From: Escherichia coli | Lineage (GTDB): Bacteria > Pseudomonadota > Gammaproteobacteria > Enterobacterales > Enterobacteriaceae | Length of the DNA stretch: 64,000 bases | Assembly: GCF_003334335.1 (NCBI RefSeq) | Contig: NZ_QOWQ01000015.1 | Direction: 5' to 3' (one strand) | Part shown: positions 59,799-59,835 of the stretch, one piece after another | Layout of the letters: each line of letters begins with the position of its first letter | Position numbering within the stretch: the first letter of the stretch is position 1 | Position numbers and translations under genes: made by a program | The notes under the pieces: generated by a model | Seen by the model: only the letters and a program-made list of their open reading frames with translations | What the model was told of the DNA's origin: nothing | The model's database searches: none

Positions 59799-59835
59799 AG
59801 TACGGCATTGATAATCATTTTCAATATCATTTAAT
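59799..59835 (+). promoter_or_regulatory. sodA promoter with Fur box overlapping -35 and TATAAT -10
   Basis: tgATAATCATTTTCAATATCATT (59799-59821) resembles the Fur consensus GATAATGATAATCATTATC; TATAAT at 59830-59835. Confidence 0.65.

Follow-up and report, generated by a model that had tools for sequence, protein, structure and literature searches.

A Fur operator of overlapping registers at the sodA promoter of Escherichia coli

The promoter of sodA, the gene for manganese superoxide dismutase (Mn-SOD), is a textbook case in which several global regulators (Fur, ArcA, SoxS/MarA/Rob, and others) act through the same short segment of DNA. In the 64-kb window examined herein, which is the whole stretch of E. 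coli DNA that was analysed, a segment immediately upstream of this gene resembles a Fur box. The question raised by this locus is whether the resemblance marks a true operator for Fur, or whether it is incidental to an AT-rich promoter that is used mainly by other proteins. A preliminary description, made from the letters alone, had proposed that a Fur box at 59799–59835 closely matches the consensus and overlaps the sodA promoter, that this fits an iron-dependent repression of Mn-SOD, and that the letters of this window are enough to recognise its regulatory sites. Our own evaluation is based on sequence match, statistical significance, promoter geometry, and conservation, whereas the data on binding and on Fur-dependent expression are taken from the literature. 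Together, these lead us to conclude that the feature is almost certainly the operator through which Fur acts on the sodA promoter of E. coli, with the occlusion mechanism and the competition with ArcA and activators that are proposed below.

The locus itself is not unusual for the species. The window is ~99.96% identical to K-12 MG1655 across its 64 kb (BLAST), the 231 bp surrounding the sodA promoter match MG1655 positions 4100600–4100830 with zero differences, and the rhaT-sodA spacer is 100% identical to that of many complete E. coli genomes. According to the RefSeq annotation of identical DNA, the gene order is rhaS, rhaR, rhaT (− strand), sodA (+ strand), kdgT, yiiM, and cpxA. The annotated sodA start codon is the ATG at 59903, which is preceded by a GGAG ribosome-binding sequence. 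A mechanical list of open reading frames uses instead the in-frame ATG at 59897, two codons upstream (MNMSYT...). The sole length difference between the window and MG1655 resides in the rhaD-rhaA spacer, where a 92-bp REP-like unit is tandemly repeated in 2.4 copies (53587–53811); the corresponding array in MG1655 is longer by 185 bp, or about two extra units.

The Fur box and its published footprint

The 19-mer GATAATCATTTTCAATATC (59810–59828) is located within the segment that was marked at the outset, 93 bp upstream of the sodA start codon. It agrees with the 19-bp Fur consensus GATAATGATAATCATTATC at 15 of 19 positions on the + strand and at 16 of 19 on the − strand. No other sequence in the 64 kb matches this consensus with three or fewer mismatches, and no such match was produced by any of 100 dinucleotide shuffles.

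The preliminary description had also suggested that a scan with a Fur weight matrix would be informative. The matrix used for this purpose is symmetric, spans 19 bp, and was derived by expectation-maximisation from ten footprinted or well-established MG1655 operator regions, with sodA excluded. The operator coordinates were taken from Chen et al. 2007 and translated into those of the present genome version. With this matrix, the two highest scores in the window are found at 59804–59822 (18.5 bits) and 59810–59828 (16.8 bits), and the next-best score anywhere in the window is 14.4 bits. A third register, beginning at 59816, is marginal at 0.2 bits, and no other position within 59786–59850 yields a positive score. 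The initial identification of a strong Fur box is therefore sustained, with the refinement that the operator is a cluster of registers offset by 6 bp rather than one 19-mer. The 19-mer that was singled out originally is the second-scoring register of this cluster, whose full span (59804–59834) is almost exactly the range that had been marked.

The significance of these scores depends on which property is considered. Individual sites scoring at least 18.5 bits occurred in 8 of 200 simulated windows, or in ~4% of random 64-kb windows, such that a lone site of this strength is only moderately unusual. In contrast, a pair of sites offset by 6 bp and totalling 35.3 bits was not observed in any of 500 simulated windows, in which the maximum was 30.0 bits. 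It is the paired arrangement alone that is clearly beyond chance.

All other Fur-like matches recovered by the matrix scan of the window fall inside the range of null maxima (mean 14.0, sd 2.2). These include a match within mobA (1105–1123; 11.4 bits) and two in the long, AT-rich spacer between fabY and yiiE, at 38336–38354 (14.4 bits) and 38122–38140 (11.5 bits), which are the third and fourth best in the window. Because their scores are within the range of null maxima, the two matches in the fabY-yiiE spacer are probably due to chance.

The site upstream of sodA corresponds to one whose occupancy by Fur has been reported. In Chen et al. 2007 (PMC2189734), which cites Tardat & Touati 1993, the Fur DNase I footprint at sodA is given as NC_000913 4098726–4098780. 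We converted these coordinates by equating the sodA ATG at 4098833 with window position 59903 (Table 1). The same paper states that the secondary region of the footprint appears only at 200–500 nM Fur. Of 5425 complete E. coli genomes, 5097 carry the 55-bp footprint stretch at 100% identity. Chen et al. 2007 also list a predicted cluster at sodA that comprises three walkers over 31 bp (23.3 bits; −87 from the ATG), and that holds rank five in their table of strong predicted genome clusters (PMC2189734). The three-register span defined by our matrix coincides with this cluster and falls inside the footprint.

Expression data from the literature point in the same direction. Fe-Fur has been reported to repress sodA directly (PMC4676285, PMC3951346), the sodA transcript of a Salmonella fur mutant is over 9-fold higher (PMC3212961), and sodA is a member of the Fur-2 iModulon in a pan-regulon study of E. 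coli (PMC10164565). Thus, the proposed iron-dependent repression of Mn-SOD is borne out by published work, both by the footprint listed in PMC2189734 and by the fur data of PMC4676285, PMC3951346, and PMC3212961. It should be considered, however, that SodA activity is similar in wild-type cells and fur mutants under steady-state aerobic conditions, which has been ascribed to RyhB and to mis-metallation with iron (PMC3212961, PMC3951346). RyhB also lowers sodA expression (PMC3951346). Given the similar activities, the physiological effect is condition-dependent.

Table 1. Coordinates of features at the sodA locus, numbered from the first nucleotide of the window
Feature	Position	Strand	Basis or remark
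Fur operator, three overlapping 19-bp registers starting at 59804, 59810, and 59816	59804–59834 (31 bp)	.	Matrix
Published Fur footprint, primary and secondary region	59796–59850	.	PMC2189734, converted; reaches +1
Putative SoxS/MarA/Rob marbox ACGGCATTGATAATCATTTT	59802–59821	+	3 mismatches to degenerate consensus; ends 18 bp before −10
−35-like hexamer TTTTCA (4/6), inside Fur box	59818–59823	+	Promoter scan
ArcA box GTTAATTAAATGATA	59825–59839	−	1 mismatch to GTTAATTAAATGTTA; equalled in 1 of 100 shuffles
−10 hexamer TATAAT (6/6)	59840–59845	+	11 bp downstream of 19-mer
Annotated sodA transcription start	59850	+	EcoCyc start via PMC2787020, converted; 53-nt 5′ UTR
sodA CDS, Mn superoxide dismutase, 206 aa	59903–60523	+	Translation and RefSeq annotation of identical DNA
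Terminator-like hairpin after sodA, 11-pair stem then TTTTGTG T-run	60578–60602	+	

Promoter geometry and overlapping sites

A promoter scan of the spacer revealed one sigma-70-like promoter, composed of TTTTCA, a 16-bp spacer, and TATAAT, in which 10 of 12 positions match. The −10 hexamer is invariant in every aligned Enterobacterales promoter, and it lies just past the end of the segment marked originally. Since the −35-like hexamer is inside the Fur box and the −10 hexamer follows shortly after it, the box indeed overlaps the sodA promoter and is placed just upstream of TATAAT, as had been stated. An alternative −35 element, TTGATA at 59808–59813, was rejected given its distance of 26 bp from the −10 hexamer.

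From the geometry of this promoter, transcription would be expected to start at 59850–59852. The start recorded in EcoCyc is 4,098,780, as quoted in PMC2787020. Relative to position 59850, the Fur cluster extends from about −46 to −16, and it holds the −35 hexamer together with most of the spacer.

The leader that follows includes a small hairpin at 59861–59881 (GCGGC, an 11-nt loop, and GCCGC). Across Enterobacterales, its stem is kept while its loop is variable, and some changes occur on both sides of the stem; in Morganellaceae, a different leader hairpin (TCACA-AGG-TGTGA) occupies the same place. The fold energy of the hairpin in the sodA 5′ UTR shows no significance (z = −0.87). A cut by RNase III has been reported at +28 of the sodA leader (PMC9032294), which maps to ~59877.

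Two additional sites appear to be interleaved with the Fur operator. On its downstream edge, an ArcA box shares 4 bp with the end of the Fur 19-mer and from there occupies the spacer as far as the −10 hexamer. It is the only sequence in the window with one mismatch to GTTAATTAAATGTTA, which we take to be the 15-bp direct-repeat consensus for ArcA. The overlap with the 19-mer fits the competition between Fur and ArcA at sodA that was described by Tardat & Touati 1993, according to PMC2189734. Park et al. 2013 observed no ArcA ChIP signal at sodA, and attributed this to Fur outcompeting ArcA (PMC3798270).

On the upstream side, a marbox-like sequence is present that may serve SoxS, MarA, and Rob. 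The marbox consensus is presumably AYnGCACnnWnnRYYAAAYn, and we assume that a forward orientation at ~18–19 bp from the −10 hexamer corresponds to class II. Matches to this consensus at three mismatches occur in the window at a frequency no different from chance (120 found versus 139 expected). Its GGCATTGAT core is kept even in the Erwiniaceae, whose Fur box has decayed. SoxS and MarA are known to activate sodA (PMC2064960, PMC2787020), and we infer that a SoxS/MarA/Rob site under the upstream half of the Fur operator is probable. The notion that regulatory sites in this window are readable from sequence therefore holds for Fur and for ArcA, but does not extend to the marbox, where agreement with the consensus is at the level of chance.

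Conservation of the operator across Enterobacterales

A search with a pattern derived from the sodA coding sequence recovered 120 loci from Enterobacterales genomes, including 117 with at least 260 bp of upstream DNA. Of these 117 upstream regions, 42 contain the E. coli 19-mer without any change, always 11 bp before TATAAT and between 92 and 102 bp from the ATG. Among Enterobacteriaceae, the region from about −55 to +25 is nearly invariant, and the DNA further upstream is unalignable. This conservation is not creditable to Fur alone, because the bases concerned are also used by ArcA, SoxS/MarA/Rob, and the core promoter. Rather, it lends support to what would be a densely packed control region. 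For Enterobacteriaceae and Yersiniaceae, the two strong registers have medians of 18.5 and 16.8 bits, and the Fur box is unchanged in the latter family.

Just upstream of the conserved promoter block, several genera of Enterobacteriaceae (loci L019, L036, L007, L021, L110, and others) carry an inverted repeat, CATAAC-N5-GTTATAAC. It is located ~115–135 bp upstream of the sodA ATG, which corresponds to approximately 59770–59790 of the window; E. coli and E. albertii are without it. This repeat could be the site of an additional regulator.

The Morganellaceae differ from the families described above in that the sequence of the box has changed at the same place, while its score is kept or even better. 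The Providencia box, GATAATGATTTTCATTAAC, scores 20.5 bits and those of Xenorhabdus reach 24.1 bits, which in both cases is above the E. coli box. The higher-scoring loci, as aligned to 59810–59828, are L055, L057, L069, L070, and L078 (Xenorhabdus and Providencia). The spacer surrounding the box and the leader have both diverged in this family. That the score is retained despite changes in sequence argues for selection on Fur binding itself.

A different pattern is observed in the Erwiniaceae, represented by 27 species of Pantoea, Erwinia, Mixta, and their relatives (L014, L015, L023, L030, L038, L043, and 21 other loci, aligned to 59804–59845). The median for the downstream register in these species is −3.5 bits, compared to 16.8 bits in Enterobacteriaceae. 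The sodA promoter nonetheless retains the GGCATTGAT core and TATAAT at the same spacing. The decay of the downstream register in a promoter that is otherwise kept suggests that the operator has been lost in this family.

It is in this comparison that the analysis may offer something mildly new. Specifically, the position of the operator relative to the −10 hexamer is fixed in Enterobacterales, and the box of the Morganellaceae has drifted in sequence while its match to Fur was kept or improved; we tentatively suggest that transcription of sodA in the Erwiniaceae might be uncoupled from direct control by Fur. We regard this picture as possible, although somewhat less than an even bet.

In two genomes of Fusibacter (a Firmicute; L104 and L106), the encoded SodA has the same 13-residue motif. 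Each carries a Fur/PerR-like box ~57 bp upstream of the start codon, which scores ~18.6 bits on the E. coli matrix.

Control of sodA by iron and relation to known systems

The arrangement of sites suggests how iron might control this promoter. When iron is sufficient, dimers of Fe2+-Fur would bind the overlapping registers, forming an array over the −35 region and most of the spacer, with protection predicted to extend over the −10 hexamer to +1 when Fur is abundant. Because the −35 region lies under the Fur site, Fe-Fur is expected to repress by denying RNA polymerase access to the promoter, an occlusion mechanism to which both the geometry and the published data point. Bound Fur would likewise be expected to exclude the activators SoxS, MarA, and Rob, if these use the putative site under the upstream half of the operator. 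Synthesis of Mn-SOD would be repressed as a result. Under iron scarcity, Fur would leave its operator and sodA would be derepressed. With an ArcA box at the downstream edge, Fur and ArcA would compete for the same DNA.

Alternatively, the likeness to a Fur box could be incidental, with the AT-rich segment serving mainly as the core promoter and as a target for ArcA and SoxS/MarA/Rob, and with little direct role for Fur. A single-site score of the size observed here, which arises in ~4% of random windows, could be accommodated by such a proposal, but the pair of registers at a 6-bp offset scores above all 500 simulations. The comparative data can also be viewed from two sides. Invariance in Enterobacteriaceae reaches from −55 to +25 and hence beyond the Fur box, and in the Erwiniaceae the box decays but the promoter and the GGCATTGAT core persist, as might be expected if other proteins were responsible for the conservation. 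However, the Morganellaceae alter the sequence yet keep or improve its Fur score. Likewise, the ArcA box with one mismatch and the marbox-like sequence that overlap the Fur box would provide the segment with other functions, but these very coordinates carry a published footprint, and the cluster at sodA belongs to the strongest that are predicted for Fur in the genome (PMC2189734). Furthermore, fur mutants derepress sodA transcription (PMC3212961, PMC3951346, PMC4676285). The proposal of an incidental resemblance has already been largely refuted by the footprint and the fur-mutant data, and we consider it very improbable.

Another possibility is that a genuine Fur site at the promoter is a minor modulator, and that iron acts on sodA mainly after transcription, through pairing of RyhB and mis-incorporation of metal. 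Fe-Fur and RyhB have been described as both repressing SodA in an incoherent feed-forward loop, in a study that also found SodA activity to be alike in wild-type cells and fur mutants (PMC3951346). Similarly, the increase of more than 9-fold in transcript in a fur mutant was accompanied by flat enzyme activity, with iron replacing manganese (PMC3212961). Yet in these same two reports, Fur is shown to act directly on sodA transcription. Post-transcriptional control adds layers of regulation but does not replace the operator, and it leaves the sequence and the footprint unexplained. We therefore judge this to be the least probable of the explanations considered, with hardly any chance of being correct. 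A Fur operator that acts directly on sodA transcription remains the reading that we favor.

The Fur site at sodA ties the iron status of the cell to the choice between manganese and iron superoxide dismutases. This operator is textbook biology and has been known for decades from footprinting and modelling, with confirmation from fur mutants. Its rediscovery adds no new biology, and its value is as a positive control for the reading of operators from sequence alone.

The closest known system is the sodA Fur operator of E. coli K-12, which is the same locus: the coordinates of its footprint and of its 31-bp cluster of three sites coincide with those in the window, and there is no difference at the operator. 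The classical Fur boxes of iron-uptake genes (fhuF, fepD-entS, fur, ryhB, entC, fecI, and cir) share the same 19-bp palindromic consensus and, as at sodA, their registers overlap at a 6-bp offset across the core promoter. The sodA box, with its three mismatches to the consensus, ranks alongside those of fur, entS, and ryhB (three each), between fhuF (two) and a series of less exact matches at entC and fecI (four), cir (five), fepA (six), and tonB and fecA (seven). Unlike the classical boxes, the sodA operator regulates a manganese-using enzyme of oxidative stress instead of an iron-uptake function, and it is interleaved with ArcA and probable SoxS/MarA/Rob sites. Its regulatory logic is that of the Fur-repressed mntH and nrdHIEF promoters, where Fe-Fur represses manganese uptake or manganese-dependent isozymes when iron is plentiful (PMC4676285), although these are different promoters.
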